Shown here piece after piece: positions 3,872 to 43,766 of a stretch of DNA of 47,969 nucleotides; position 1 is the stretch's first letter; each line of letters begins with the position of its first letter. Source of the DNA: Treponema sp. Lineage in GTDB: Bacteria > Spirochaetota > Spirochaetia > Treponematales > Breznakiellaceae. The position numbers and the translations under genes are program-made. The notes beneath the pieces are model-generated. The model did no database searches and was not told where the DNA came from. It was given only the letters and a program-made list of their open reading frames with translations. The stretch covers positions 1 through 47,969 of the forward strand of contig JAIRMT010000013.1 of assembly GCA_031258505.1 (NCBI GenBank), in the 5' to 3' direction.

Positions 3872-4750
3872 TTATATGTTCGTTGCTAGTTCGGGCCTGA
3901 CTTCGCCGGTCTCTAGCGACAGCAAATACTTGCCCCACTTGCCCGCCCAATCGCGCAGAGCTTGTACGCTAAGCGGGTTCGGAGCGCGGGAATCTGTGTG
4001 CGCGGCTATCTCCCGCGCCAGCGATAAATACACCTGCGCCTGAGCTGAATCAGGCGCAGCCTCTATGGTGGTCTTGCCTTGCAGTTCACACTGCGTAACC
4101 GTAACCGAGCGGGGGATATATTCCACTACGCGAGTCTGTGTCTGAGCCACAAAGTCATCGATAATTTCTTTCGCATAGGGCTGGTTAATCGAATTGGCTA
4201 TTACGCCGCCCAGTAACGCGCCGCCAGAGTTGGAGTATTTCTGGATGCCGCGAAAAAGGTTGTTCGCCGCGTAAACCGCCATGAAGTCCGCCGAGGAGAC
4301 AGTGAAGACGTGTTGAGCTATGCCTTCACGAATCGGAACCGCGAAACCGCCACAGACCACGTCGCCAAGCACGTCGTAGATCACGAAGTCCAGGTCAAGT
4401 TCCTCGAAGATGCGCTGCTGCTTGAACAGTTCTACGGCAGTGATGATGCCGCGCCCAGCACAGCCAACTCCGGGCGAGGGACCGCCAGCTTCCACGCAGT
4501 ACACGCCGTTAAAGCCTCTGAAAATAACTTCATGGGCGTTGACCGCGCTCTTTTCCCGCAGGGTATCGAGTACGGTCGGGATGTAGGTTCCATCGCGGAG
4601 GGTGTTGGTCGAGTCGCTTTTGGGATCGCAACCAAACTGCATGACCTTGTAGCCGAGTTTTGAGAGAGCGGCGCTCAGGTTGGATGTAGTGGTGGATTTG
4701 CCAATGCCTCCTTTGCCATAGATTGCGATCTGTTTTGCTTTGCCCATCAT
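3872..4750 (-). CDS. NifH-family ATPase / [4Fe-4S] reductase component of a nitrogenase-like enzyme
   Basis: 292 aa. It has the P-loop GKGGIGKS, switch I CDPKSDST, and both cluster cysteines in NifH-type contexts ([17 protein letters not shown] and [14 protein letters not shown]). Confidence 0.93.
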
Positions 4751-4757
4751 AGCCCTC

Positions 4758-6317
4758 TCATCCGTTCACCACAGACTTGATAGTCGGGGGTTCGTTGTCG
4801 CTGGACAGAGGGACGGACTTGATGTAACTGAACGGGTCCTGCTCGTACCATGTTTTCTTAAAGGGCAGCGGCACGTTGAGCGAGAGTTGGCGGTTGAACT
4901 CAGCATTGCGGAACTTCTTTGCCAAACGCCGCGCAATCTCAAACACGCCTGAATAGCCGCAGTAGTTGTACTGAGGGCCGAAGAGTGGAAGCAAAGGGAG
5001 TCCATGGCGAGAAGCGATGTTGTTTCCGCCAACATGGGCAACGAGAATGTCCGGCTTGAGCTTTGAGATGATGTTCGACGATTCAAAGGGCTGGTTTGTG
5101 GCAACGCTGAATAACACATCATCAACATCGTGAAGCGCCTCAAAGATGGGTTCAACAAAGCGGTCGTAGTGGTGCGCCTTGAACCCAACGACTTCTATCT
5201 CCAAGTCTTGCAAGACCTCGGCAGTGGCGAGGATGCGTACCTCGCCGCCGAGTAGGTAGGCGCGTTTGCCTTTGAGGGTTTTACGGTATGGGTTCAGCGC
5301 TTCCTCAAGGTACTGATGCTCGGCTTTGATGAGGCGTTCTGTCTCATCCTCAATGCCGAAGTGGGCGGCGATGCGGCGCAGCCACCTGTCCGTGTTCTTC
5401 CGACCAATCGGGATGGTGTCAACCACAAAGGGAATGTTGTACATGGTCTTCAGGTGTTCCACGAAATAGTCATCGTGTGTGCCGCAGAGACTTACGTTGA
5501 GGCTGGTTTCCAGCGCGTACTGAAAATCCTCTGGTTTTGCGTAACAGGGGATAAACGTAACCTCAAGCCCCAGGGCTTCAAGGATGCGGCGGAACTCGGT
5601 TTCGTCAAAACGGCTCATGGAACCGACATTCAGCACGTTCAGCTTTCGGCTCCGGCGGTACTGTTCTCGCTGGCGCTGTTCCTCCTGTTCCCAGATGGGC
5701 TGCTTACGGTCTGGATAGCGAATGTACTTCTTGAGTATGCCGTGATACACCGCGTCATAGGCAGTTGCCATGAGCTTTGTCTTAAAGCCCTCGCAGTGTA
5801 TGGGAACGAGGATTGCCGCAGTTTCCTTCTGTATATCCTGAAGGATGTTGTCAATGTCGTCCCCGATGAGCGCCGGGACACAGCTATTGGTAACAATGAT
5901 GGACTCAGGCCGGAATTCCTTGTCCGCGTACAGGATTGCGTCGCGCAGCTTTTTTTCACCGCCGCCGATGACGTCTGGCTCATCAAGGTTGGTACTGAGC
6001 CAGATAAGCCCTGTTGCATTGGGGTCTCGTACCTGTTTCATGGCTTTGTTCTGCCCATAAGCGCCGATGGAACACATACCGCAACCCACAGGACCGTGCA
6101 TGATTACTACAGAGTTTCGTATGGAGTTGAGCATACCGAGGCTCAGGGTAAATTGACACCCCTGGGCTTGGGTGAAGGCGCGGGATGAGAGGTTTGTACA
6201 GCCATGCGCCTTTGCGCGGTCGCAAGTCCGTACCTGCGAACAGGTTCCGCCAAAAGCAATGGCTGCATGGAGCCGGTCTTCCCGTGATGGGGCTGATTTC
6301 GCATCTAAAAAGTTCAT
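4758..6317 (-). CDS. NifD/NifE-like subunit of a nitrogenase-like (component 1 type) oxidoreductase
   Basis: 519 aa. It carries NifD-type motifs QGCQF (Cys54), HGPVGCG (Cys79), [13 protein letters not shown] (Cys146), PIHCEGF (Cys175) and [25 protein letters not shown] (Cys278, aligned by eye to the NifD Cys275 region). AAGGAG SD. Confidence 0.88.
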
Positions 6318-6329
6318 ATTTTCTACTCC

Positions 6330-7670
6330 TTATCTTGTTGCTACCAGGTAGGTAATGACGTCTTCCGCAAAGGAAAGTCCTCCGCTATAGCCGGCATAGG
6401 CGCGGTTCATCACGCAGCGTCCGGTAAGAGGGAAACTAACGGGTATGAGGGGATAACCGAATTCATCGGATAGGTCCCGCTCAAACGAACTGCCAATAAT
6501 GACCGTTGGATTAAAGGGGTCGTAGTACCGGTCATTCTGGTTCCGGGGCCAGACTTCTCTCAGGTATTTTTTTACCGAAGATGCGTCAGTATCAAAGCGC
6601 ACTGACGGCGTGAGTCCTGAGTTCAATTCCTGAAACTGGGCGCTTACACTCTGTTGACGGCTCTTGTCGAGAGTGTCTGTTACCATAACCAGTTCTGGTA
6701 TCCAGCCCAGCTCGTCAGAGACAAAACGGGTTATTGCCGGCGCATAGTTGGAATCACCGATTACCACAGCATAGCGCTGGAGATCAGCGTCATTGTATAT
6801 GTCCGCGATACGTGAGAGGTAGTCGTAGTAGATTGACTTCTCCTCGTCAATGACGCGCTTGACCGCTGCCGAGTCAAGCGCAAGCGCCTTGCCGACGCTG
6901 TTCAGGAAAACCTCGCTTGCCAGCGCCCCGATGGGGAAGGGCGTTACAATGTAGGGGATGCCGTGTACTTCCTCAAAGTATTGGGCGCTGTCAATGCCCG
7001 GTCCATTGGATACAACGATGTTCAGCCCCGCGTTACCCGCGTTTTTGAGCGCGTCCAGGGTTTCACCCTCGCCAAAGAAGGTGTTTACCGTGAGTCCAAG
7101 CCGCTCCAGAAGCCGCTTGAGTTCCCGCAGATTGCCCTTCCAGAATACGTCCTGCGCTGGAACTATACCAAGCACGTTGACGGTGAGCGGGTCTTTCGAG
7201 GCTTGCTTGGCAATGTACTTGGCGATGAGTCCTTTCAGCACAAGCTCATAACCAGTGAAGGCGTTACCTTTGAAGCTAGGCGTGGGAATGGCGATGACTG
7301 GTTTTTCCGCGTCAGCGAATTCAGCTGCAACTGATACGGTGTCGTCGCCAATCATATCAACCATACAGCCGGTTACGACGACATAGAGGTCGCCGTCCAC
7401 GATTTCAAGGGTTGACTGTATCTGCTCCCGCAGGCGGCCTTCACCGCCAAACACCACATCCCGTTCCACCACGTTGGAACTGGGCAGGGCAGCGCCGCCG
7501 CAGTAGCCGCCGCCGAGATAGCCTGCGCCGGCATTGAGCGCCGCGTTTATGTTGCCGCCGCAACCTGCCGAGCCGTGTATAATGCTTATTGTCCTGGGCA
7601 GGGCATGCAATGTACCAATCGCGCCGCCAAGCGCACAGGTGTAGCGCGGTCGGTCGATAAATTTACTCAT
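6330..7670 (-). CDS. NifK/NifN-like subunit of a nitrogenase-like oxidoreductase
   Basis: Three P-cluster-type cysteine motifs: RYTCALGGA, HGSAGCGG and VTGCMVDMIGDD. I prefer the start at 7670 (MSKFIDRP) because GGAGG lies 8 nt upstream. The track start at 7685 lies inside that SD. Confidence 0.85.
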   Translation of the reverse strand: MSKFIDRPRYTCALGGAIGTLHALPRTISIIHGSAGCGGNINAALNAGAGYLGGGYCGGAALPSSNVVERDVVFGGEGRLREQIQSTLEIVDGDLYVVVTGCMVDMIGDDTVSVAAEFADAEKPVIAIPTPSFKGNAFTGYELVLKGLIAKYIAKQASKDPLTVNVLGIVPAQDVFWKGNLRELKRLLERLGLTVNTFFGEGETLDALKNAGNAGLNIVVSNGPGIDSAQYFEEVHGIPYIVTPFPIGALASEVFLNSVGKALALDSAAVKRVIDEEKSIYYDYLSRIADIYNDADLQRYAVVIGDSNYAPAITRFVSDELGWIPELVMVTDTLDKSRQQSVSAQFQELNSGLTPSVRFDTDASSVKKYLREVWPRNQNDRYYDPFNPTVIIGSSFERDLSDEFGYPLIPVSFPLTGRCVMNRAYAGYSGGLSFAEDVITYLVATR

Positions 7671-7691
7671 TTCATATACCTCCATATTGTT

Positions 7692-8639
7692 TTAACCATG
7701 AGAAAACGTTTCCTCAATAGGCGTTCTGTTTTCGCCATAGATGAGGGACGCAAAATCCCCCTTACCCGGAATGCCGATGGCGTCGGCGCGGCAGTGCTGA
7801 CAGTGCCTGAACACTGGCAAGTAGGCTTCAGCCGCCTCACGAGCGCGGCTAAGCGCGTCGCAGTCCGGCGCGCTGTATTCCGCGAACTCGTGTTGGGGTA
7901 TGAGGGGAATAATGTTAATGATAGACGCGCCCCAATCATGCGCGGCGCGGGCAATGTCGGCGATGTGTGTGTCGTTAACGCCCGGAATCAGCACGATGTT
8001 AATCTTGATGGTGAAGCCAATGTCCGCCGCCTCTTGTATACCCCGCTCTTGCGCGCTGATTAAGAAGACCGCGCCTTCAACGCCAGTATAGACCTTGCCG
8101 TCAAGCATTACATGGGAACAAATCCGGTGAAGAATGACTGGATCAACAGCGTTCACGGTTACGGTCAGAGTTTTGACTCCGACCTGTGCAAGGTCTTGGG
8201 CGTAGCGCTCCAGCAACAAGCCGTTGGTGGATAGACATTTGATGAGCGCCGGGTATGCCTGATGAATGAGCGCGAAGGTTTCAATGGCGTGAGTCGTTGC
8301 CAGCGTATCTCCCGGACCAGCGATACCTGCCACTGTGATGTCAGGACAGCGTTCCAGCGCCTCTTTCACCAGGTCAACCGCGTCTTTTGGCGCAAGCAGT
8401 CTCGCGCTTACCCCAGGGCGATTCTCGAACTTGTTAAACGAGCGCTTGCAGAACCGGCACTGTATGTTACACACCGGACTGACAGGCAAATGCACCCGTC
8501 CATGATTCAAGGTTGCCCCGCTAGAAAAGCAGGGGTGATTCAGCGAAGGGTGAAGGCTGGAGCGCGCATTAGCGGTTCCAGTGGATTGAAGAATCTTGAC
8601 ATTCTCCGTAATCGCTGAAGCAGCGAGAGCTGCACTCAT
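7692..8639 (-). CDS. nifB: NifB-like radical-SAM cofactor maturase (stand-alone SAM domain, no C-terminal NifX domain)
   Basis: 315 aa. It has HPCF...[20 protein letters not shown] (a CX3CX2C motif), [32 protein letters not shown] and a C-terminal [12 protein letters not shown]. These are the characteristic NifB motifs. Its ATG overlaps the cysK stop (ATGA). Confidence 0.88.
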
Positions 8640-9583
8640 AGCGGTCGTTCCAGTGAATCGAAGAGCGCTGTTGAGAGATAGCGTTCGCCCGTATCTGGCA
8701 GGAGCGCGACAATGGTCTTGCCTTGAAACTCCGGTCGTTTGGAGATTTGGGTTGCTGCGTATACAGCCGCGCCTGAAGAAATGCCCACGAGCAAGCCTTC
8801 GGTTATGGCAAGACGCTGGGACGCGATATAGGCTTCCTCAGTACGCACCTTGTAAATCTCGTCGTATATCGAGGTGTTAAGCACATGGGGTACAAAACCC
8901 GCGCCTATGCCCTGAATCTTGTGCGGACCTGGCGCTGAACCAGACAGTACCGCTGAATCGTAGGGTTCCACGGCAATCACTTTTATTGCCGGATTCTGCG
9001 CTTTGAGGAACTCGCCCGCGCCAGTGATAGTGCCGCCAGTTCCAATGCCTGCGACAAAGGCAGCCACATCGCCGTCAGTGTCCCGCCATATTTCAGGACC
9101 AGTGGTTTTCCGGTGAATGTCTGGATTTGCCGCATTGTTAAACTGCTGGGGAATAAAGGAACCGTTAATCTGAGCGTGGAGTTCCTCAGCCTTCCTGATA
9201 GCGCCTTTCATGCCGTCCTTACCCGGTGTGAGTACCAGCTCTGCGTTCAGCGCGCTCAACAGTTTCCGCCGCTCTATACTCATGGTGTCGGGCATAACCA
9301 GAATGATGCGGTAACCCTTAGCTGCGGCGACAAAAGCCAGCCCCACGCCAGTATTCCCACTCGTTGGCTCAATCAGCACGCTGTCCTTGGTTATCAGCCC
9401 CTGCTGTTCCGCCGCCTCGATCATTGCCAGCGCGATACGGTCTTTAACGCTCCCCGCTGGATTGAAGTATTCCAGCTTTGCCACGAGCCTTCCCTTCAGC
9501 TCAAAGCCCTCAGCATAGCCGCTCAGTTCCAGCAGCGGCGTATTCCCGATAAGCTCCGTCAGTTTCTTTGCAATCTTTGCCAT
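8636..9583 (-). CDS. cysK: Cysteine synthase A / O-acetylserine sulfhydrylase (first gene of the nitrogenase-like operon)
   Basis: 315 aa. PLP-lysine motif [15 protein letters not shown] loop and [20 protein letters not shown]. Confidence 0.93.
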
Positions 9584-9651
9584 CTTTTTCTCCTTCCTTC
9601 TTTATATAAATAAATCGTTAAACGATGAGGAATTGCCCCTCATTGCTTTAA

Positions 9652-10460
9652 GGATTGAACGCCCAGTTCCTTTAGGAACTAACGCCTAGTTCCTTAGGGG
9701 AACTAACACCTAGTTCCTCTAGGAACTAACACCTCGTTCCTCTAGGAACTAACACCTAGTTCCTTATGGGAACTAACACCTAGTTCCTTAGGGGAACTAA
9801 CACCTAGTTCCTCTAGGAACTAACACCTAGTTCCTTTAAGGAACTAACGCCTAGTTCCTTAGGGGAACTAACACCTCGTTCCTTAGGGGAACTAACGCCC
9901 AGTTCCTTAGGGGAACTAACGCCCAGTTCCTTTAGGAACTAACGCCTAGTTCCTTTAGGAACTAACACCCTGATCCTAGAGGAACTAACGCCTCGTTCCT
10001 TAGGGGAACTAACCGCTAGTTCCTTAGGGGAACTAACACCCTGATCCTCTAGGAACTGATACCTAGTTCCTTTAGGAACTAACACCTAGTTCCTCTAGGA
10101 ACTAACACCTAGTTCCTTATGGGAACTAACGCCTAGTTCCTTATGGGAACTAACGCCTAGTTCCTTATAGGAACTAACGCCTAGTTCCTTATGGGAACTA
10201 ACACCCTGATCCTCTAGGAACTAACACCCTGATCCTCTAGGAACTAACGCCCAGTTCCTTTAGGAACTAACCGCTAGTTCCTCTAGGAACTAACCACTAG
10301 TTCCTCTAGGAACTAACGCCTAGTTCCTTATGGGAACTAACACCTAGTTCCTCTAGGAACTAACACCTCGTTCCTTATGGGAACTAACACCTCGTTCCTT
10401 ATGGGAACTAACACCCTGATCCTCTAGGAACTAACACCCTGATCCTCTAGGAACTAACAC
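9652..10460. repeat. Tandem array of about 34 palindromic units with a 23-24 bp period
   Basis: The unit is GGAACTAAC[A/G]CC[T/C][A/C]GTTCC plus a 4-5 nt linker (TTTA, TCTA, TTAGG, TTATG). I counted 33 full units plus degenerate ends. TAG/TAA stops occur in every unit, and the ORF track has no ORF of 60 aa or more across it. Confidence 0.95.
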
Positions 10461-20897: not shown

Positions 20898-21248
20898 ATG
20901 GCTTGGCGAGTTGCATTCACGAGCGCCGACGATGTTTATGTGAACCAGCATTTTGGACACGCCCGTTACTTCGTCATCAGGGATATAGAGGCTGATGGTA
21001 CGAGTAGCTTTTTGGAACGACGGGAGATTACACCAGTCTGCGGAAGCGGCGATCACGGCGCTGGGGTGCTAGACGATGTGATCGAGAGCCTGCACGATTG
21101 TATCGCGGTACTTACCGCAAAGATTGGTCCCGCACCCCGCAAACGGTTGGAATTGGCGGGTATCACGGTTTTCGAGGAACCAGCTATCATTGAGGAGGCG
21201 GCGAGGAAACTGGCGGCTTACTATAGCCGGACAAAGCGAGAGGAGTAG
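20898..21248 (+). CDS. NifX/NifB-C-terminal-domain family protein (Fe-S/FeMo-cofactor-binding family)
   Basis: 116 aa. It shows the family signature VNQHFGHARYFVIRDIE at the N-terminus and the small alpha/beta size typical of NifX/NafY/NifB-C domains. Confidence 0.75.
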   Translation: MAWRVAFTSADDVYVNQHFGHARYFVIRDIEADGTSSFLERREITPVCGSGDHGAGVLDDVIESLHDCIAVLTAKIGPAPRKRLELAGITVFEEPAIIEEAARKLAAYYSRTKREE

Positions 21249-32951: not shown

Positions 32952-33881
32952 ATGAATATGCTTGATTTAATCGGGAATACCCCGCTGGTTGAACTTAAAA
33001 AAATCTCCGCTGAACTTAATGGCGTGTCGATACATGCTAAGGCGGAGTTCCGCAATCCTTCTGGTTCCGTCAAGGATCGGGCGGCAAAAGCCATGCTCCT
33101 TGACGGCATTGAATCCGGCAAACTATGTCCCGGAAAGACCATCATCGACGCCTCAAGCGGCAACACGGGTATTGCCTACGCCATTTTAGGAGCAATCTTG
33201 GGCTATCCAGTAAGAATATATCTTCCGGCAAACGCCAGTTGGGAACGAAAAGCCTTCATCGCCTGCTGTGGAACAGCCGTTGTGGAGACCAATGCCCTGG
33301 AAAGCTCCGATGGCGCGTATCTGGCCGCAAAAGCCGAAGCGGAATCCCAAGCAGATAAATACTTCTGGCCTGACCAGTACAACAACGATGCTAACTGGAA
33401 AGCCCACTACCATACCACTGGTGTTGAAATATGGGAACAGACAGAGGGCAAAATTACTCACTTTATTACTGGCATGGGTACATCAGGAACATTCATGGGA
33501 ACTTCTCGAAGGCTCAAGGAGTACAACAAAAGCATTGAGGCTGTGGCAGTACAGCCTGATTCGCCCTTCCACGGCATTGAAGGAACAAAGCACATGGCCA
33601 GTTCCATTAAACCGGGATTTTACGATGAAACATTCCCCGACCGTTTTGTCATGGTCAATACTGAGGCGGCCTATGCCATGACTCGCAGACTTGTCCGTGA
33701 TGAAGGTCTTTTCGTGGGAATCAGTTCCGGCGCAAACGTGCAGGCTGCCCTTGACCTGGGGCGCACCTTGCCCCCAGGTTCGCTCATTGTTACCATGTTA
33801 TGCGATTCGGGCTTCCGCTATCTTTCGGATGCGTTCTGGAACATACCAGTTGAACTCAAAGGTCATGGAGAAGGAATATGA
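32952..33881 (+). CDS. cysM: CysM-type cysteine synthase (probably sulfur-carrier-protein dependent)
   Basis: 309 aa with NPSGSVKDR and SSGNTG. It is translationally coupled (ATGA) to the JAMM-CysO gene and followed by moeZ, as in the mycobacterial CysM/CysO/Mec/MoeZ system. Confidence 0.85.
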   Translation: MNMLDLIGNTPLVELKKISAELNGVSIHAKAEFRNPSGSVKDRAAKAMLLDGIESGKLCPGKTIIDASSGNTGIAYAILGAILGYPVRIYLPANASWERKAFIACCGTAVVETNALESSDGAYLAAKAEAESQADKYFWPDQYNNDANWKAHYHTTGVEIWEQTEGKITHFITGMGTSGTFMGTSRRLKEYNKSIEAVAVQPDSPFHGIEGTKHMASSIKPGFYDETFPDRFVMVNTEAAYAMTRRLVRDEGLFVGISSGANVQAALDLGRTLPPGSLIVTMLCDSGFRYLSDAFWNIPVELKGHGEGI

Positions 33882-34579
33882 TTCAGTTGTCCGCTCAATG
33901 TTTAGACGCAATCCGTACAGAAGGTGAAAAGGCGTACCCGAATGAGTGCTGCGGCGCTTTGTTAGGCGTAATTTTTGATGATGACAAGCGCCTAGTTCAA
34001 AGCATCTTTCCCATTACCAATGCCCGCGAGCAAACGGAACAGTACCATCGCTTTGAAATAGAACCGGAAGATTTGCTGCGGGCTGAAAAAGAGGCAAGGT
34101 CGCAAAATAGGGACGTGCTTGGATTTTACCATTCCCACCCGGATCATCCGGCGCGTCCCTCAGAATACGACCGGAACAACGCCTTTCCATTTTATTCGTA
34201 TCTGATTGTATCGGTTGAGAAAAAGAAGGCGGCGGCTCTGACAAGCTGGCGGCTTTCCGACGACCGGAAAGAAATTTTTGAAGAAGTAGTTAAGGAGGAA
34301 ACTATGGCGGTAATCATTCAAATCCCGACAGCCCTGCGGGGTTTTACGGAACGGAAACATGAAGTTGAGGTTGAAGGCCAGACCGTAGGTGAGGCAATCA
34401 ATGCCCTTGCCGGAAAGTACCCGGACTTGCGGCAGCATCTTTATCAAGGTGAAAATTTGCGTTCGTTTATCAACGTGTTTGTAGGCGATACCAACATTAA
34501 GAAACTTGAAGGGCTTGATACAAAACTGTCAGGTAACGAAACAGTCATGCTGGTTCCAGCAATCGCTGGCGGCGCCTAA
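33878..34579 (+). CDS. In-frame fusion of a JAMM/MPN+ metalloprotease (Mec-like) and a ThiS/MoaD-type sulfur carrier (CysO-like)
   Basis: The N-terminal 142 aa carry ECCGALLG and HSHPDHPARPSEYD (the JAMM motif). The C-terminal 91 aa form a beta-grasp-sized domain ending AIAGGA. No stop codon lies between the domains. Confidence 0.85.
   Translation: MIQLSAQCLDAIRTEGEKAYPNECCGALLGVIFDDDKRLVQSIFPITNAREQTEQYHRFEIEPEDLLRAEKEARSQNRDVLGFYHSHPDHPARPSEYDRNNAFPFYSYLIVSVEKKKAAALTSWRLSDDRKEIFEEVVKEETMAVIIQIPTALRGFTERKHEVEVEGQTVGEAINALAGKYPDLRQHLYQGENLRSFINVFVGDTNIKKLEGLDTKLSGNETVMLVPAIAGGA
34304..34579 (+). CDS. cysO: Possible independently translated CysO-like sulfur carrier (internal start)
   Basis: The ATG at 34304 is in frame and preceded by AAGGAGG at 34292-34298 (5-nt spacing). 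The product MAVIIQIP...VPAIAGGA is 91 aa. Confidence 0.5.
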   Translation: MAVIIQIPTALRGFTERKHEVEVEGQTVGEAINALAGKYPDLRQHLYQGENLRSFINVFVGDTNIKKLEGLDTKLSGNETVMLVPAIAGGA

Positions 34580-34580
34580 C

Positions 34581-35762
34581 ATGAACTCTATTATAGAAGA
34601 AAGCCGCCTCATTAGTCTCACCAACGAGGAGATTGCCCGCTACAGCCGCCATCTTCTCTTGCTAGAAGTCGGCATTGAGGGACAGAAACGGCTCAAGGCG
34701 GCGAAGGTCTTGCTTGTGGGAACTGGCGGCCTCGGCGCTCCACTTGCGCTTTACCTTGCCGCCAGTGGCGTGGGGACTATCGGCATCGTGGACTTTGACT
34801 TTGTGGAGGAATCAAACCTTCAGCGACAGGTGATCCATTCCACACGGGATGTGGGTCGTCCTAAAGTCGCGTCAGCGCAGGAGCGCATCAAGGGCATAAA
34901 TCCAAAGTGCAATGTGATAACGTATAACACTATGCTCAACAGCGGCAACGCCCTTGACATCATCAAAGAATACGACATTGTTGCTGACGGTACTGACAAT
35001 TACCAGACCCGCTACCTTGTGAACGATGCCTGCGTGTTATTGGGAAAGCCCAATGTGTATGGCTCGGTATTTCAATTTGAAGGGCAGGTTTCGGTTTTCT
35101 TCGCCAAAGAAGGACCTTGCTACCGCTGCCTGTACCCGGAACCGCCGCCGCCGGGACTCGTACCCTCCTGCGCCGAAGGCGGCGTTGTCGGGGTATTGCC
35201 CGGCATCATCGGCTGTATTCAGGCAAACGAAGTAATCAAACTCATTACCGGTTTCCGGGAAGAGGATGGCGCAAGCCTTATCGGGCGGCTGCTTCTTTTT
35301 GACGCATGGAAAATGAAGTTTCGGGAACTCGTTCTGGACAAAGAAAGCGCCTGCCCTATCTGCGGCGCAAACCCCACAATCCATGAGTTGATTGATTACG
35401 AGCAATTCTGCGGCCTTAAAAAAAGCGATGAGGCGGAACCCATAGAAACCATCAGCGCAACAGAACTGAAATCCCGGCTGGATGCGGGCGTTCCAGTACA
35501 AATCATCGACATCCGGGAACCTCACGAGCGGGCAATCGCAAAGTTTCCCAACGCAAAGTCAATCCCTCTGGGGCAGATGACCCGCCGCATTGACGAGTTT
35601 GACCCAGCGATTGACTCGGTATTCATCTGTAAAATTGGACAGCGGAGTGTTTTCGCCATTCACGCCTTACGCGAGGCTGGCTACAAGGGCCGGCTGCTCA
35701 ACTTGAAAGACGGTGTGAACGGCTGGGCGCGGGAAGTGGACAGGCTGCTGCCTGTTTATTAA
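34581..35762 (+). CDS. moeZ: MoeZ/MoeB-like E1 adenylyltransferase with C-terminal rhodanese domain
   Basis: Start at 34581, 1 nt after the CysO stop. It has the nucleotide loop VGTGGLGAP, CxxC pairs (CYRC, CPIC) and a rhodanese active-site loop (CKIGQRS). Confidence 0.88.
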   Translation: MNSIIEESRLISLTNEEIARYSRHLLLLEVGIEGQKRLKAAKVLLVGTGGLGAPLALYLAASGVGTIGIVDFDFVEESNLQRQVIHSTRDVGRPKVASAQERIKGINPKCNVITYNTMLNSGNALDIIKEYDIVADGTDNYQTRYLVNDACVLLGKPNVYGSVFQFEGQVSVFFAKEGPCYRCLYPEPPPPGLVPSCAEGGVVGVLPGIIGCIQANEVIKLITGFREEDGASLIGRLLLFDAWKMKFRELVLDKESACPICGANPTIHELIDYEQFCGLKKSDEAEPIETISATELKSRLDAGVPVQIIDIREPHERAIAKFPNAKSIPLGQMTRRIDEFDPAIDSVFICKIGQRSVFAIHALREAGYKGRLLNLKDGVNGWAREVDRLLPVY

Positions 35763-35780
35763 ATAGAAAGGAGAATGATT

Positions 35781-36734
35781 ATGGCAGAAAAGACAATCAA
35801 CGCATTGGGACGGAGCGCGGCATATCAGCTTGCGAATGTTACAAAAACACCGCCCCAGTTTGGCTCCCTTACCCCTAAATGGCTTACAAGGGTACTGGAA
35901 TTCAAAGGACTTGAAGCGGGTATTTACCGGGTTAATCGGGTCGCTGAGGGCGAAACGCCTCTTGACGTTCTGTGCAGCCAGGACCCGAAAAAAGTTGAGA
36001 TTCCCCAGGGCTTCGTGGATTACGTTTCAAAACCGCGGGAGTATCAACTCAGCTCAATATCCACGATTATCAATGTGGACACTAAAGTTTCAGATGTCTA
36101 CAGTTCGCCGTATGACCAGACTCAGGAACAGATAAAGCTGGCAGTTGAAAGCCTCAAGGAGCGGCAGGAGAGTCAAATCATCAACAGCGATGATTACGGC
36201 CTCCTCAAAAACGCCGTGGACAGTCAGCGTATACAAACCCGCTACGGCCGCCCCATGCCCGACGACTTGGATGAACTCATCACCAAAGTATGGAAAGAGC
36301 CGAGTTTCTTCCTGGCTCATCCTCGCGCTATCGCCGCCTTTGAGCGGGAATGCACCCGTCGGGGCGTCCCGCCGGTAACGGTAACTATTGCCGGAGGAAT
36401 TTTTATCGCGTGGCGGGGCATTCCTCTTATTCCCACGGACAAGCTCTTTGTGGACGGCCTCAAGAACCCCAAAGCCAAAACCGGCAAGACCAATATCCTG
36501 TTAGTCCGTACCGGTGAAGCCAAACGCGGTGTTGTGGGCCTCTACCAGGCTGGCGTTCCGGGCGAACAGAGTCGCGGTCTTTCGGTGCGTTTTCGGGGCA
36601 TTGACGATAATGGCGTTGCCTCGTACCTCCTCTCGGTGTACTGCTCCGCAGCCATTCTCGCTGATGATGCTGTGGCCGTGCTGGAAGACGTGGAGGTAGG
36701 AGATTACTATGAATATACCCAACAGCCGGTTTAG
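35781..36734 (+). CDS. Family 2A encapsulin shell protein (SrpI-like, HK97-fold nanocompartment)
   Basis: Recalled SrpI-family motifs are present: GIYRVNRV, PREYQLSSIST, KVSDVYSSPYDQ, KVWKEPSFFLAHPRAIAAFERECTRRGVPP, WRGIPLIPTDK and ILLVRTGEAKRGVVGLYQ. The ATG at 35781 has AAGGAG 7 nt upstream. Confidence 0.8.
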   Translation: MAEKTINALGRSAAYQLANVTKTPPQFGSLTPKWLTRVLEFKGLEAGIYRVNRVAEGETPLDVLCSQDPKKVEIPQGFVDYVSKPREYQLSSISTIINVDTKVSDVYSSPYDQTQEQIKLAVESLKERQESQIINSDDYGLLKNAVDSQRIQTRYGRPMPDDLDELITKVWKEPSFFLAHPRAIAAFERECTRRGVPPVTVTIAGGIFIAWRGIPLIPTDKLFVDGLKNPKAKTGKTNILLVRTGEAKRGVVGLYQAGVPGEQSRGLSVRFRGIDDNGVASYLLSVYCSAAILADDAVAVLEDVEVGDYYEYTQQPV

Positions 36735-38184
36735 TTTTTCAGAGTGGGGCTTGCCGTCTGCGGCAGAGATAGCCGCGTTAGCCGCGAACTATTTCCCTGA
36801 ATTCGGCAATGCGCCCGCAGGCAGGTCCCCGCAGCCAGTGTCAGAGGTCATTTCGCCTAACGCCTATTCGCCGGTTGTGCTTCCCAAAGAAAAAAAGCTG
36901 GAGCATAGCGGTTCCGCAGCGCGTCAAGCCAGCGGCGCCAGACTCTACGCCAAAACACAGGGCGTTTCAGTCGGTCATCGTTCCCTTGATTCCATACGCG
37001 CTGATTTCCCCATTCTTGCGGAAAAGGTATCAGGCGGCCATGACCTGGTGTGGTTTGATAACGCGGCTACTACCCAGCGACCCAGGCAGGTAATTGAGCG
37101 CCTGTCCTATTATTATGAACACGAGAATTCCAATGTCCATCGAGGAGCGCATGAACTGGCGGCACGTTCTACCAACGCCTACGAGGAAGCCAGGGCGAAG
37201 ATTGCCTGCTTTTTAGGCGCGCCCTCGCCGGACAATATTGTGTATGTACGGGGAACTACTGAAGGGATAAATCTTGTGGCACAGGCTTATGTCAAACCGC
37301 TGCTCAAAGCTGGGGACGAGATAATTCTTACCATGCTGGAACACCACGCCAACATTGTCCCCTGGCAGCTTATCGCCGCTGAAACTGGAGCGGTTCTGCG
37401 GGTTGCGCCGATTGACCAAAGCGGCCAGCTCATTCTTTCGGAGTACGAAAAACTCTTTAACAGCCGCACCCGCTTTGCCGCAGTAACCCATGTGTCAAAC
37501 GCTTTAGGCACGATTGCGCCAGTGGAGGAACTGGTACACATCGCTCATGCCCGCGGAGTGCGAATCCTCATTGACGGGGCGCAGTCTGTGTCGCATATTC
37601 CGGTGAATGTCGCGGCTCTGGACACTGATTTTTTCGTGTTTTCGGGGCATAAGATTTTCGGGCCAACAGGTATAGGGGCGCTTTATGGTAAAAGCGATGT
37701 TCTGGAAGCAGCCCAGCCATACCAAGGTGGAGGTAACATGATTTTCGATGTTACCTTTGAGCGTACCCTCTATCACAAGCCGCCCGCGAAATTTGAGGCA
37801 GGTACTGGCAGCATTGCGGACGCGGTGGGTCTGGGCGCGGCGCTGGACTATGTTTCGGAGATTGGCATACAGAATATCGCTGCATGGGAACACGAACTCC
37901 TGCAATACGGCATGAAAGAACTTGCGAAGATTCCCGGCCTGCGTCTCATTGGAACAGCCGCTGAAAAGGCGAGCGTCCTCTCCTTCGTGCTTGAAGGACA
38001 CAGCCTTGAGGAAGTAGGTAAACATCTCTCAAGTCGGGGAATCGCCGTCCGCGCCGGGCATCACTGCGCCCAGCCAGTACACCGATTCTTTGGCCTTGAA
38101 GGAACCGTTCGCCCCTCTGTTGCCTTGTACAACACGTTGGGCGAGATTGACAAGCTTGTAACGGCAGTAGGAGAGCTGGTATGA
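36709..38184 (+). CDS. Cysteine desulfurase (SufS/CsdA-like) with N-terminal disordered cargo-loading extension
   Basis: The catalytic domain starts around residue 95 (FPILAEK...VWFDNAATTQRP) and includes HHANIVPW and SGHKIFGPTGIGALYG. The Pro/Ala/Ser-rich N-terminal ~90 aa contain AEIAALAANYFPEF. AGGAG SD. Confidence 0.88.
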   Translation: MNIPNSRFSFSEWGLPSAAEIAALAANYFPEFGNAPAGRSPQPVSEVISPNAYSPVVLPKEKKLEHSGSAARQASGARLYAKTQGVSVGHRSLDSIRADFPILAEKVSGGHDLVWFDNAATTQRPRQVIERLSYYYEHENSNVHRGAHELAARSTNAYEEARAKIACFLGAPSPDNIVYVRGTTEGINLVAQAYVKPLLKAGDEIILTMLEHHANIVPWQLIAAETGAVLRVAPIDQSGQLILSEYEKLFNSRTRFAAVTHVSNALGTIAPVEELVHIAHARGVRILIDGAQSVSHIPVNVAALDTDFFVFSGHKIFGPTGIGALYGKSDVLEAAQPYQGGGNMIFDVTFERTLYHKPPAKFEAGTGSIADAVGLGAALDYVSEIGIQNIAAWEHELLQYGMKELAKIPGLRLIGTAAEKASVLSFVLEGHSLEEVGKHLSSRGIAVRAGHHCAQPVHRFFGLEGTVRPSVALYNTLGEIDKLVTAVGELV

Positions 38185-39404: not shown

Positions 39405-40373
39405 ATGCAACACGAAACCAATACAAAAGTAAAACATCTGGTTGACATACTGTCACGGAGTTACCGGGATCATGCGGAAATTATAAAAGTCGATGCGGAA
39501 AATCAGCTTAACCGGAGTGTCATCATTGATATTCTTGAGCGGCTGCGCAAACTTATTTTTCCCGGCTATTTTGGCAAGAAACATCTTTCCGCTGACTTGA
39601 TAGAATATTACGCTGGAGATTTGCTTGAAGAAGTTATCCATGATCTCACCCCGGAGCTGGCTAAAGCACTGTGTCATCTTGATGACACGGCAGTTTCCCC
39701 GGCGGAAAAGGCAAGCAGCGGTTTATTTTTTCAAGAACAGGCCAGTGATATTGCCTTTACGTTTTTGTCAAGATTGCCGGAAATCCGGGAATATCTTGTC
39801 TCCGATGTTTCCGCCGCCTTTGACGGCGACCCTGCGGCGTTCAGCAAAGATGAAATAATCTCGTCCTATCCGGGAATATACGCTATCATGGTCTACCGTC
39901 TGGCACATGCGCTATACGAACTTGATGTCCCGCTCATTCCCCGAATTATGACCGAACATGCGCATAGCGTTACTGGCATCGACATTCACCCCGGCGCGGT
40001 AATCGGACATCATTTCTTCATTGACCACGGAACCGGAATTGTCATTGGAGAGACAACGATCATCGGTAACCATGTAAAAATATACCAGGGCGTAACTCTG
40101 GGCGGGCTTTCCACCAGAGGCGGTCAGGCTCTTAAAGGAACTAAACGCCATCCCACCATTGAAGATCATGTAACGATCTATTCAGGCGCTTCCATATTCG
40201 GCGGCGCTACGATTATCGGTGAGGGAGTTGTAATCGGCAGCAGCGCCTTTATCACCAAGTCGGTACCGGAAAAAACTAGGGTTAGCGTGAAAAATCTGGA
40301 AATGCAGTACAAGGTAGACCAGAGCGCCCGCGCCGAGCTTGTCCAGGACGGCTTTTGGGATTGGGTGATATAG
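39405..40373 (+). CDS. cysE: Serine O-acetyltransferase (long form)
   Basis: Hexapeptide-repeat core GIDIHPGAVIGHHFFIDHGTGIVIGETTIIGNHVKIYQGVTLGG. GAGGAG SD. Confidence 0.88.
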   Translation: MQHETNTKVKHLVDILSRSYRDHAEIIKVDAENQLNRSVIIDILERLRKLIFPGYFGKKHLSADLIEYYAGDLLEEVIHDLTPELAKALCHLDDTAVSPAEKASSGLFFQEQASDIAFTFLSRLPEIREYLVSDVSAAFDGDPAAFSKDEIISSYPGIYAIMVYRLAHALYELDVPLIPRIMTEHAHSVTGIDIHPGAVIGHHFFIDHGTGIVIGETTIIGNHVKIYQGVTLGGLSTRGGQALKGTKRHPTIEDHVTIYSGASIFGGATIIGEGVVIGSSAFITKSVPEKTRVSVKNLEMQYKVDQSARAELVQDGFWDWVI

Positions 40374-40376
40374 AGG

Positions 40377-40834
40377 TCAAGCGATTCAAGGTTTTTTATA
40401 AAAAACCTTGAAACCTATTGACACTTGATGTTTTACAAGATACATTCTTAGTAAATCAGTAGGTATTATAAGCAAAGGAGCTTTTATGTCGGAACTAAGT
40501 ATAAGCACTGCGTCAAATGGCCTAAGCGTTGGCAAAGACTCGGCGCTGTCCATCCATTTTGACTGGCGCACTCTGATCCCACTCGTCTCGGTCGCCTTTA
40601 CCCAGGTACTGCATACCGCGCTGCCAGTAGCGTCAACGTATCGCACCAAGGTTCTACCGTGGTTCACCTGGTTCAACGTCGTTGCTATCGGGGTACTGGC
40701 AATACTCGCGGTGGTGAGTCTCTTTAACAGCCGGTATCGGGAACGGTTCACGTATAAATCATGGTTTCTGGGGGTAGCGTTTCTTCTGCTCAACTTGTAT
40801 AACCTCATCACCGTCAAGTTCGACCTGATTCCCA
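40377..40834 (+). repeat. Copy C of the dispersed direct repeat (the functional copy, continuous with the full-length permease)
   Basis: It aligns with 21311-21745 (copy A) and with copy B from about 28250 to 28545. Confidence 0.85.
40387..40446 (+). promoter_or_regulatory. Perfect 24-bp palindrome plus sigma70-like promoter (copy C)
   Basis: CAAGGTTTTTTATAAAAAACCTTG at 40387-40410. TTGACA at 40418-40423, a 17-nt spacer, and TACATT at 40441-40446. AAGGAG at 40475-40480. Confidence 0.55.
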
Positions 40835-41502
40835 GCCTCTATTTCCCATCGCCGGAACGGATCGTGTATGTATTTCTCACAGACTGGTTCTTTATACTGC
40901 GCTGCCTAGTCTACTCGCTCCGTTTGTTGCTGGGCGGCTTCTTCCTCGGCGCGCTGCTTGGGGTGCTAACCGGTACGCTCATCGGCTGGAGCCAGCGCTG
41001 GAACTACTGGATCATGCCCTGTATCCGAATCGTGGGACCGATTCCATCAACCGCCTGGATACCCATCGCGCTGGTGGTCTTCACAAAAGCGACCGATGCA
41101 GCGCTGTTCCTCATCGCCCTGGGAGTCTGGTTCCCCACAACGGTACTCACCAGTTCAGGCATCCTCAATGTGCGGAAAAGTTACTTCGAGGTTTCAAGCA
41201 CCTTGGGAGCGAGCAATCTGCGGAATGTGCTTTCCATCGCCCTACCCGGCGCCGCGCCAAACATCTTCGCGGGCCTGTTTAACGGCACATCGTCGTCATT
41301 CCTAACCCTTATGGCCGCTGAAATGATCGGCTGTAAGTTCGGCATTGGCTGGTACATCAACTGGCAGAGGGAAACCATGGCGTATTCACAGGTGTACGCA
41401 GCGCTCATCGTGATTGCCATAACCTTTTCACTCCTCATTAACCTCCAGTTCAAGATTCGCAATCGCGTCCTGAGTTGGCAGAAAGGCACAATTCGGTGGT
41501 AG
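40486..41502 (+). CDS. ABC transporter permease (NitT/TauT family) with an extra N-terminal membrane extension of about 110 aa
   Basis: 338 aa. The C-terminal ~230 aa resemble permease 29639..30508. The N-terminal extension is the part duplicated in copies A and B. Confidence 0.88.
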   Translation: MSELSISTASNGLSVGKDSALSIHFDWRTLIPLVSVAFTQVLHTALPVASTYRTKVLPWFTWFNVVAIGVLAILAVVSLFNSRYRERFTYKSWFLGVAFLLLNLYNLITVKFDLIPSLYFPSPERIVYVFLTDWFFILRCLVYSLRLLLGGFFLGALLGVLTGTLIGWSQRWNYWIMPCIRIVGPIPSTAWIPIALVVFTKATDAALFLIALGVWFPTTVLTSSGILNVRKSYFEVSSTLGASNLRNVLSIALPGAAPNIFAGLFNGTSSSFLTLMAAEMIGCKFGIGWYINWQRETMAYSQVYAALIVIAITFSLLINLQFKIRNRVLSWQKGTIRW

Positions 41503-41510
41503 GTGAAAAT

Positions 41511-42305
41511 ATGCAAACAGCAGTACATGGCGGAACCATACGGATCAACGGTGTAACTAAAACCTTTCCTCAAGAAGGCGCGGCTGATATTACCGTGCTG
41601 GATAACATCAGCCTTGTTTTCAAAAGCGGCGAGTTTATTTCTCTCATCGGCCCATCCGGATGCGGGAAGTCAACCCTGCTGCGGCTCATCGCTGGACTTA
41701 CCCAAAGCGATAGCGGCTCACTTTTTTTGGATGACGCCGAGATACAAGCGCCGGGACATGAGCGAGGGCTGGTGTTTCAGGACCCAACCCTGTTCCCGTG
41801 GAAAACCATCTGGGAGAACATCGCCTTCGGGCTGCGGGCGCGTGGGGTCTATCGTGAAGAAAAACAGAACATTCCCGGGTTTTTCAAGCTCGTGGGGCTT
41901 GAGGGCTTTGAGAAGTCCTATCCTCACCACCTTTCCGGCGGTATGGCGCAGAGGGCGTCGCTGGCCAGGACCCTCATCAATAACCCAAAAGCGCTCCTGC
42001 TTGACGAGCCTCTGGGCGCTCTTGACGCCTTTACCCGCATGAATATGCAGGACGAGATTCTCAAGATATGGGAAGAACGTCGAATGACTATGGTCATGGT
42101 TACGCATGATGTTGATGAGGCGATTTACATGGCTGACCGCATCGTGGTCATGTCAGCGCGCCCGGCTAAGATTGAAAAGATGATTACAGTGGAGATTGGC
42201 CGTCCGCGACAGCGCGACGACCCGGACTTCCTCGACCTGCGAGCGAAGATACTACAAATCCTGCACTTCGCGGGCGCAAAGCAGGAACCGGAGTACAACT
42301 TGTGA
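41511..42305 (+). CDS. ABC transporter ATP-binding protein (SsuB/TauB-like)
   Basis: Start at 41511 (MQTAVHGG). Walker [10 protein letters not shown], signature LSGGMAQR and Walker B LLLDEPLGALD are present. Confidence 0.9.
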   Translation: MQTAVHGGTIRINGVTKTFPQEGAADITVLDNISLVFKSGEFISLIGPSGCGKSTLLRLIAGLTQSDSGSLFLDDAEIQAPGHERGLVFQDPTLFPWKTIWENIAFGLRARGVYREEKQNIPGFFKLVGLEGFEKSYPHHLSGGMAQRASLARTLINNPKALLLDEPLGALDAFTRMNMQDEILKIWEERRMTMVMVTHDVDEAIYMADRIVVMSARPAKIEKMITVEIGRPRQRDDPDFLDLRAKILQILHFAGAKQEPEYNL

Positions 42306-42354
42306 AAAAACCGTCGTTGACGGAGAACATCTTTTTAAGGAGAGGATATAAACT

Positions 42355-43380
42355 ATGAAAAAAGCTATCCTTTTGCTTTCATTGGTTTGCGTGGCGGTAC
42401 TTAGCGTCCACGCAAGAGGTCAGAATCAGGGAACTTCCGCTGCTGCAGCGGAAGACCCGAACTATGTGGTCAAGATCGGACGGTCAGTCTCCGTCGGTCT
42501 TTGTACTTCACCTTTCGTCATCGCCGAGCATTTCGGTTACTACGAGGAAGAGGGACTCAAGTGGGATTCTGTCGCTATTGAGACAGGTCAGGCCAACCTC
42601 CTGCTCACCACCGGCGCGGTTGATGTTACCAACAACCTTTTGGCCACGCTCATTCAGCCCATTGCCAATGGTCTTGACGTGAAGATTCCCCTGGGCATAC
42701 ACACGGGCTGCCAGAAGGTACTGGTACGCGTTGATTCTGATATACAAACGCCCGCAGACCTTCGCGGCAAGCGAATCGGCACAACCGGCATGGCATCCAG
42801 CGGCACGGTCATCACCCAGCGCTATCTCGCGGAACTAGGCATTGGCGTTACCGCCGATAACCTTGAGGTTGAGTGGCTGATCTATCAGCAGGCAGACCTC
42901 CCGTTGGCGCTTGAGCGGGGACAGGTTGACGCCATCGCGCTTGGAGACCCGACCGCTTACATCGTTGAGCAGGAAGGAAAGGCTAGGGTAATCATCAATC
43001 AGGCTACAGACGACTACCTCAAGGACGAATTCTGCTGTGTGGTAGTTGCTTCAGCCAACTTTGTGAAGGATCATCCCGAAGCTGCGGCAAAGTTCACCCG
43101 CGCTATTCAGAAAGCCGCAGCCTTTGTGCAGGAGAACCCTGATGAGACCGCCCGTATTCTTGATGAGCGAAAGTATGTGGCCGGCGATCCAGAGGTAAAC
43201 GCCGCCATACTCAAGACCTACAACTTTAGGGCTTCGGTGAGCGAGGCGGAAGTGGCGATTTCCCGTAATACGCGCGACCTCCAGAGAATCAATCTGGTGG
43301 ACAGCGACGTTGACCCCGACGCCCTTACGCGGAACGTCTTCATTGCCCTGCCCGGTGTGCCGGATTCACTGTATAAGTGA
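42355..43380 (+). CDS. ABC transporter substrate-binding protein (NMT1/SsuA-like)
   Basis: 341 aa with a signal peptide (MKKAILLLSLVCVAVLSVHA) and GGAGAGG SD. Confidence 0.8.
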   Translation: MKKAILLLSLVCVAVLSVHARGQNQGTSAAAAEDPNYVVKIGRSVSVGLCTSPFVIAEHFGYYEEEGLKWDSVAIETGQANLLLTTGAVDVTNNLLATLIQPIANGLDVKIPLGIHTGCQKVLVRVDSDIQTPADLRGKRIGTTGMASSGTVITQRYLAELGIGVTADNLEVEWLIYQQADLPLALERGQVDAIALGDPTAYIVEQEGKARVIINQATDDYLKDEFCCVVVASANFVKDHPEAAAKFTRAIQKAAAFVQENPDETARILDERKYVAGDPEVNAAILKTYNFRASVSEAEVAISRNTRDLQRINLVDSDVDPDALTRNVFIALPGVPDSLYK

Positions 43381-43408: not shown

Positions 43409-43439
43409 GGATTAACCGCAATACCTTTGCGGTTAATCC
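43409..43439 (+). terminator. Strong stem-loop after the SBP gene (putative terminator)
   Basis: GGATTAACCGCA-atacctt-TGCGGTTAATCC, a perfect 12-bp stem 28 nt after the stop. There is no U-tract, and it abuts the second repeat array. Confidence 0.4.
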
Positions 43440-43443
43440 CGTA

Positions 43444-43766
43444 GGAATGAGGCGTTAGTTCCCCTAAGGAACTAGGCGTTAGTTCCTAGAGGAACTAGGC
43501 GTTAGTTCCTCTAGGAACAGGGTGTTAGTTCCTAGAGGAACTAGGCGTTAGTTCCTCTAAGGAACGAGCGGTTAGTTCCCCTAAGGAACGAGGCGTTAGT
43601 TCCTAGAGGAACTAGGCGTTAGTTCCTATAAGGAACGAGGCGTTAGTTCCTAGAGGAACTAGGTGTTAGTTCCTAAAGGAACTAGGTGTTAGTTCCTAGA
43701 GGAACTAGGTGTTAGTTCCCATAAGGAACGAGGCGTTAGTTCCTAGAGGAACTAGGTGTTAGTTCC
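43444..43766. repeat. Second palindromic tandem array (14 units), inverted relative to 9652..10460
   Basis: The units GGAAC[T/G]AGG[C/T]GTTAGTTCC are the reverse complement of the GGAACTAAC[A/G]CCTAGTTCC unit in array 1. Linker types are the same. Confidence 0.93.

Follow-up and report, generated by a model that had tools for sequence, protein, structure and literature searches.

A cysK-linked Group IV nitrogenase-like gene set of a termite-gut Treponema with the predicted cluster architecture of methylthio-alkane reductase

The closest described relatives of the genes considered here are nitrogen fixation-like (NFL) reductases of Group IV, among them methylthio-alkane reductase (MAR) of Rhodospirillum rubrum (MarBHDK, Group IV-C) and the Nfa system of Group IV-A (NfaBHDK), known from Endomicrobium proavitum and Heliophilum fasciatum. 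The cryo-electron microscopy structure of R. rubrum MarDK (PDB 9FMG, 2025) revealed a canonical P-cluster together with an [Fe8S9C] cluster that is held by two residues only, Cys270 and His429, the latter belonging to the MarD-specific loop I and not to the loop of nitrogenase His442 (PMC12552129), and replacement of these ligands (C270A, H429L/F) yields inactive MAR variants (PMC13474568). For most sequences of Groups IV-A, C, D, E and F, P- and L-type clusters are predicted in a review of 2026 (PMC13474568). Arg428 of MarD is described as retained by almost every Group IV system and proposed as their hallmark. In expression screens, MAR activity of physiological relevance was confined to Group IV-C, and R. 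rubrum NifB and MarB turned out to be interchangeable for MAR (PMC13753814). Here, we address a gene string of this kind, cysK-B-K-D-H, encoded on the minus strand of a 47,969-nucleotide stretch of Treponema sp. DNA (assembly GCA_031258505.1, contig JAIRMT010000013.1, positions 1 to 47,969), referred to below as the window. We consider it likely that the string encodes a two-component Group IV NFL reductase built like MAR, with a P-cluster and an L-cluster, which passes sulfide from organosulfur compounds to CysK. A previous reading of the same letters by eye (the sequence-only reading) had already expected a P-cluster and an atypically ligated complex cofactor, and its proposals are considered below along with the residues they concern.

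The five genes are packed between 9583 and 3872, with gaps of 6 to 21 nucleotides (nt) among B, K, D and H and a 4-nt overlap between the stop of cysK and the start of B. Both catalytic subunits—the NflD-like alpha subunit D (4758–6317, minus strand, 519 amino acids) and the NflK-like beta subunit K (6330–7670, minus strand, 446 amino acids)—match PF00148, at 248 and 229 bits, respectively. K starts at the ATG of 7670 (MSKF) with GGAGG 8 nt upstream, and all relatives begin at the same place, in agreement with the end coordinate adopted in the sequence-only reading; the start chosen by the open reading frame (ORF) caller at 7685 adds five residues, giving a 451-residue ORF in which the P-cluster cysteines are numbered 17, 42 and 107. 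Both proteins were aligned by HMMER with all solved structures, by MAFFT L-INS-i together with representatives of the Mar, the Nfa-like and the true nitrogenase proteins, and by profile comparison in hhalign, MarD and MarK being rebuilt from the HMMER alignments with a numbering that reproduces the published ligand numbers. The best solved match of D is MarD (9FMG_A/9D9U_A, E = 5e-61) and that of K is MarK (9D9U_C, E = 7e-85), whereas profile comparison of D with the Mar/Nfa profile returns a probability of 100% (E = 6e-84). Since the pairwise E-values are this low and the ligand residues are invariant or nearly so among relatives (81 for D and 70 for K, at least 48% identical), the homology is not due to chance.

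Six cysteines of the two subunits occupy the positions that bind the P-cluster in the solved enzymes. In D, Cys54, Cys79 and Cys146 (codons 6156–6158, 6081–6083 and 5880–5882) coincide in all three kinds of alignment with MarD Cys66, Cys91 and Cys158 and with the P-cluster positions of NifD; in K, Cys12, Cys37 and Cys102 (codons 7635–7637, 7560–7562 and 7365–7367) coincide with MarK Cys32, Cys56 and Cys121 and with those of NifK. Cys54 and Cys146 are invariant among the D relatives and Cys79 is kept in 80 of 81, while the three cysteines of K are present in 70 of 70. The motifs quoted for them in the sequence-only reading are all found, namely QGCQF (residues 52–56), HGPVGCG (74–80) and an 11-residue motif (144–154) in D, and YTCALGGA, HGSAGCG and TGCMVDMIGDD in K, and the by-eye alignment to Azotobacter NifDK on which they were based is upheld by HMMER, L-INS-i and hhalign. 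Judged by the MarDK structures, these residues would bind an [8Fe-7S] P-cluster where D and K meet.

The second predicted metal site belongs to D. Cys278 (codon 5484–5486), located in the 12-residue segment 273–284, aligns with both NifD Cys275 and MarD Cys270, as was proposed for the FeMo-cofactor ligand, and is invariant among the relatives. Opposite MarD His429 (KPDFIIIRHNG) stands His428 of D (ILVAHVGG, codon 5034–5036), a pairing recovered by HMMER, L-INS-i and hhalign and preserved in 81 of 81 relatives; it is this loop-I histidine that the sequence-only reading overlooked. Replacement of NifD His442 was correctly recognized, the position being occupied by Phe446 within the 11-residue segment 444–454, and the Gln191/His195 region indeed reads KTKLMATAY (179–187), where Met183 and Tyr187 take the places of NifD Gln191 and His195, the MarD counterparts being Trp195 and Phe199. 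By analogy with the MarDK structures, D is predicted to hold an all-iron [Fe8S9C] L-cluster (NifB-co) devoid of homocitrate, its ends bound by Cys278 and by His428 on a Mar-type loop I, with no His442 equivalent involved. Two other assignments were discarded: Cys453, in the segment 444–454, as a substitute for His442, being confined to the Treponema lineage with M or L elsewhere, and D His192 as the partner of NifD His195, a HMMER match that requires a 5-residue gap and was abandoned for the ungapped Mar-type register of the structure paper and L-INS-i. Thus, the expectation of a P-cluster and a NifB-co-derived cofactor, the latter bound via the Cys275 equivalent, independent of His442 and housed in a pocket that is not tuned for N2, is supported, but its novelty is not, the ligation being that of MarDK (PMC12552129). 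A P-cluster combined with a NifB-co-type cofactor lacking the nitrogenase histidine had been realized already by the MAR structures of 2025 and the predicted arrangement is atypical by nitrogenase standards only and corresponds to the pattern published for Group IV.

The components encoded next to D and K belong to the same type of system. H (3872–4750, minus strand, 292 amino acids) is a MarH-type Fe protein, i.e., an ATP-dependent reductase, that scores 397.8 against TIGR01287 (cut-off 394.35) and matches R. rubrum MarH (9FMG_D) at 498 bits, with 77% identity over 278 ungapped residues, compared with about 275 bits to any NifH; its [4Fe-4S] ligands are Cys97 and Cys133. Across Group IV clades this reductase is far more conserved (77%) than the catalytic core (29% for D and 36% for K). 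B (7692–8639, minus strand, 315 amino acids) is a MarB-type NifB homologue consisting of the radical SAM domain only, which scores 272 bits against NifB of M. thermautotrophicus (MtNifB, 7BI7) and 258 against the NCBIfam nifB model TIGR01290 (cut-off 343.65). Its cysteines include the radical SAM CxxxCxxC motif (Cys57/61/64), the K1-type Cys37 and Cys135 and the K2-type Cys260/280/283, that is eight of the nine canonical NifB cysteines as numbered in MaNifB (radical SAM 50/54/57, K1 30/63/129, K2 264/274/277; PMC6053413). The equivalent of MaNifB Cys63 is Phe71, and none of the 44 family B proteins has cysteine there; all 44 possess Cys98, seven residues before the GIAGPGD motif, which may replace the Cys63-type K1 ligand. 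Because B from a Mar-clade locus (human-gut contig, L083:663-1526), 51% identical to the protein studied here, displays the same cysteine pattern including Cys98, the loss of the Cys63 equivalent is to be regarded as a MarB-type feature rather than as a defect. Description of B as a genuine NifB calls for qualification: the protein is a homologue of MarB type, lacks the Cys63 equivalent and the NifX domain and remains below the nifB cut-off. A stand-alone NifX/NafY-like cofactor-binding protein of 116 amino acids is encoded at 20898–21248 on the plus strand (PF02579, 75 bits) and corresponds to the NifX portion at the C-terminus of the nifB model. The metagenome-assembled genome (MAG; 2.06 Mb, 69% complete) contains one D/K pair, one B and one NifX-like gene, and neither a second D/K pair, nor a second NifB, nor a client nitrogenase was found in this 69%-complete assembly. 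Since no other D/K pair or NifB exists in the MAG, B can only serve the D/K enzyme.

An extra cysteine triad at the N-terminus of D (segment 23–40; Cys26, Cys32 and Cys40) is present as had been pointed out, but only Cys40 is invariant (81/81), Cys26 and Cys32 being retained in 89% and 64% of relatives. Full-length and fragment HMMER alignments with NifE begin with D residue 38 opposite NifE residue 23, which puts Cys40 opposite NifE Cys25 or close to it; this NifE residue is a docking ligand of the L-cluster, known or putative (PMC13031127). By this correspondence Cys40, accompanied by Cys26 and Cys32, may dock NifB-co during its insertion in the way of NifE Cys25 (with Cys15), in a system lacking NifEN. 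Taken together with the fact that NifE is the top NCBIfam match of D, the same correspondence might speak for D and K as a NifEN-like scaffold or carrier, and a related possibility is that they form a [4Fe-4S]-only enzyme as DPOR, CfbD and IsrDK are thought to be. Nevertheless, the NifE score amounts to 181 bits against a cut-off of 505 (TIGR01283), no client nitrogenase was found in the 69%-complete genome, and K keeps all three P-cluster cysteines, whereas NifN does not have the full set of three. NifE-like binding, one of the options of the sequence-only reading, finds no support in view of this score and the missing client, and a scaffold role was rejected on these grounds together with the linked maturase. 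The [4Fe-4S]-only variant is opposed by the linked NifB-type maturase and the NifX-like protein, which are needless for such enzymes, and by MarDK, for which P- and L-type clusters were demonstrated on the same ligand set (PMC12552129). Either role, scaffold or [4Fe-4S]-only, appears decidedly unlikely.

To which of the Group IV lineages D belongs was assessed by a maximum-likelihood tree of 70 D-type sequences, in which MarD and family members were combined with 50%-identity representatives drawn from a phmmer search of the whole library. D is found in a clade of 17 sequences with 100% support, MarD in a separate clade of 14, also with 100% support, and the true nitrogenase alpha subunits P0256 and P0264, which exceed the TIGR01862 cut-off, in a third one. 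The MarD clade includes the NfaD-like protein P0151, the cysteines of which (49/52/59/77/80/145/256) reproduce the pattern of E. proavitum NfaD (50/53/60/78/81/146/257) shifted by one residue; Nfa was therefore located by its pattern and not by the NfaD sequence. Mar and Nfa sequences share the R-H motif in loop I and Trp195, and in the clade of D loop I is one residue shorter. This placement bears directly on the idea that the locus encodes a MAR orthologue converting dimethyl sulfide, ethyl methyl sulfide or methylthioethanol into methanethiol and a hydrocarbon. In its favour, the closest solved structures are those of MarD, MarK and MarH, the last of these sharing 77% identity with H, the genes form a set of MarB type in a sulfur-salvage setting, and a sub-clade of relatives carries corrinoid methyltransferase genes beside K-D. 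However, D is only 29% identical to MarD and falls into the other clade. Of the 13 residues that the literature assigns to the pocket and channel of MarD, D retains no more than Asp200 and His375: Met replaces Trp195, there is no Arg428, His194 corresponds to Leu182 and Phe199 to Tyr187, and M70, C73, Y98 and I101 of the channel correspond to L, G, A and Q. Besides, linkage is to cysK and cysE instead of metY, and the presence of an importer points to a substrate that is not volatile. MAR orthology was accordingly rejected by phylogeny, pocket residues and gene context, and we see little likelihood in it.

Relatives of the locus were collected by scanning one genome per species with the most conserved peptides of the family. 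This revealed the CGTHDDYF signature in 257 species-level genomes, many of them from termite, rumen and human guts, and the neighbour counts below refer to the best 80 of the 257 encoding stretches, which belong to termite-gut Treponema MAGs, many Clostridia (among them Sporobacter termitidis, Mobilisporobacter senegalensis, Faecalicatena contorta and Desulfitobacterium sp.), Synergistaceae and others. After clustering of the neighbours, K was found before D in every locus, and the genes usually ran from the ABC importer through cysK, B, K and D to H. A cysK-like gene accompanies 56 of the 80 loci, usually directly upstream of B-K-D, followed in frequency by H (45), B (43), an ATP-binding cassette (ABC) importer with a binding protein of the SsuA/NMT1 family (about 40) and NifX (31); Rrf2-type regulators, cysE and pyridoxal phosphate (PLP) enzymes of Cys/Met metabolism recur as well. 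In the window, cysK (8636–9583, minus strand) encodes O-acetylserine sulfhydrylase A (TIGR01139, 447 against a cut-off of 351), while cysE (39405–40373), an ABC permease (40486–41502), an ABC ATPase (41475–42305) and the SsuA/NMT1-family binding protein (42355–43380), all recognized by Pfam/NCBIfam, lie apart on the plus strand as the relocated 5' half of the ancestral operon. In two relatives with 94–95% identity (L001 and L002) cysE, permease, ATPase, binding protein, cysK, B, K, D and H follow each other on one strand. Arrays of 23–24-nt repeats at 9602–10460 and 43420–43766 mark both break points of a segment of about 33 kb, the inversion of which would rejoin the two halves in the order of these relatives.

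The same neighbourhoods speak to another explanation, namely that the enzyme is an alternative N2-fixing or other nitrogen-reducing system like Group IV-A Nfa proposed for termite-gut E. proavitum. Such a role would suit the nitrogen-poor termite-gut habitat and a MAG without canonical nitrogenase, and the P-cluster and Cys/His ligand pattern is shared with NfaD (PMC13474568). Yet D is outside the clade of NfaD-like P0151, K-D is surrounded in 80 genomes by sulfur genes and by neither PII, nor nifI, nor amt genes, Gln191, His195 and His442 are all replaced, and the Nfa claim itself is not settled (PMC13474568, section 4.2). A nitrogen role thus finds no support in clade placement or neighbours, and we give it very little credence. 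As for the sulfur side, no sulfite reductase of the NIR_SIR type was found in the own genome (69% complete) or in its four genus mates, and only 3 of 31 relatives have one; without it, a route through sulfite would be a dead end.

Coming back to the preferred reading of a MAR-like reductase feeding CysK, the following sequence of events can be proposed. An organosulfur substrate would be imported by the linked SsuABC-like transporter, and H would deliver electrons in an ATP-driven manner to the D2K2 core, where the C-S bond of the imported compound would undergo reductive cleavage. The sulfide released, or a thiol accepted by CysK, would then be fixed into cysteine with O-acetylserine supplied by CysE. 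The cofactor itself would be made by the adjacent B, probably aided by the separate NifX-like protein, and NifEN would not participate. Gene linkage suggests that the enzyme probably delivers sulfide, or a thiol acceptable for CysK, by reductive C-S cleavage. A more far-reaching version can be put forward only tentatively, and in our estimate it has somewhat less than an even chance of being right as a whole: the K-D clade would catalyse a reaction undescribed for the nitrogenase family, ATP-driven reductive desulfurization that takes an imported organosulfur compound of non-volatile nature, be it a thiol, a thioether acid or a sulfonate, as far as sulfide, with NifB-co docking at Cys40, with L-cluster surroundings devoid of the MAR Arg and Trp, and in hosts lacking sulfite reductase. 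The enzyme may also explain how cysteine sulfur is supplied in gut spirochaetes and Clostridia without sulfite reductase.

Several observations weigh against the preferred reading. Sulfide as a product is drawn from gene linkage only. Arg428 of MarD is replaced by Ala427 in D, across the family one of T, G, I and A stands there and Arg never does, and Trp195, essential in MAR, is replaced by Met183 (Met in 94% of the clade); given these absences the cofactor may sit or behave differently from that of MAR. One of the canonical K1 ligands is absent from B. With a MAG that is 69% complete, little weight attaches to a lack of sulfite reductase or of other nif genes. The inversion in the window separates the operon from its transporter half (39405–43380, plus strand) and from the native promoter. 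Finally, the AlphaFold2 monomer of D, built on a 15-sequence alignment, has a mean pLDDT of 65.5 with values below 50 in the cluster-binding segments; it is good for a fold search only, in which 9FMG_A came first with a TM-score of about 0.55–0.60.

Beyond the string itself, the window contains a large sulfur island, which comprises importers of the methionine and sulfonate type, a further two CysK/CysM genes, a set of CysO/MoeZ type, an SrpI encapsulin accompanied by cysteine desulfurase and a PLP enzyme of the Cys/Met kind. At 32952–35762 (plus strand) a CysM-like synthase, a JAB-ThiS fusion and a ThiF-rhodanese protein stand in a row adjoining two further CysK genes, an arrangement that looks like the CysO/Mec/MoeZ-type thiocarboxylate route to cysteine. 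At 35775–38184 (plus strand) a type 2A encapsulin shell protein (SrpI-like, PF19307, 320 bits) is immediately followed by a class-V aminotransferase/cysteine desulfurase as a shell-and-cargo pair. An Rfam scan of the whole window for riboswitches and leaders gave no family at gathering score. Two peculiarities were noted among relatives. In a Bacillota sub-clade (L070-L073 and L078) genes of a corrinoid protein (DxHxxG), a URO-D-type methyltransferase and a RACo-type activator are situated about 2.7–6 kb upstream, before K-D, which hints at a methylated sulfur substrate in this sub-clade. In many genomes (L050, L051, L053, L055, L068, L077, L079 and L080) a single locus holds between two and four distinct D/K pairs of Group IV, 27–39% identical to the pair of the window, which apparently share one H, B and NifX.

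Comparison with the known systems defines the position of the locus. Mo-, V- and Fe-nitrogenases (NifDK, VnfDK, AnfDK) and NifEN have in common with D and K the fold, the P-cluster cysteine triads, the Cys275 equivalent and, as predicted for D, the NifB-derived 8Fe core, but D is deprived of His442, Gln191, His195 and the homocitrate-pocket residues, no nifEN is present, and D stays far below all NCBIfam cut-offs (155 against 654 for TIGR01282 and 168 against 486 for TIGR01862, in addition to the NifE value given above). MAR (9FMG, 9D9U) resembles the system in its two components, six-cysteine P-cluster site, Cys270/Cys278 and His429/His428 pairs, lack of His442, Gln191 and His195 equivalents, MarH-type reductase, MarB-type maturase without NifX domain and sulfur-salvage setting. 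It differs in gene order (D-K in MAR, K-D here), in linkage to metY instead of cysK, cysE and the SsuABC-like importer, and in sequence, D (29% identical to MarD) and K (36% identical to MarK) forming a separate clade with signatures of its own: an HCEGFKTK-containing motif with the invariant extra D-His281, the invariant K-Cys57 (codon 7500–7502), and D-Cys258, retained in 79 of 81 relatives. Nfa is likewise an NFL system of anaerobes and guts with six cysteines, a Cys/His cofactor pair, a NifB homologue and an extra cysteine three residues past the second P-cluster cysteine (NfaD Cys81, D Cys82); however, NfaD-like P0151 groups with MarD and keeps the R-H motif and Trp, and Nfa is implicated in nitrogen, not sulfur, metabolism. 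Groups IV-D and IV-E in the nomenclature of the North laboratory are similar by description only, with predicted P- and L-type clusters, cysteine synthase or sulfur genes nearby, occurrence in Clostridia and gut anaerobes and no MAR activity on expression (PMC13753814, PMC13474568). On the sequence evidence, the D/K pair is neither MAR (IV-C) nor Nfa (IV-A) and represents a distinct, widespread clade with a pocket of its own (Met183, Tyr187, His281 and no Arg before His428). Being large and unlike MAR in both pocket and gene context, this clade offers a well-defined target in the search for further nitrogenase-type cluster chemistry.

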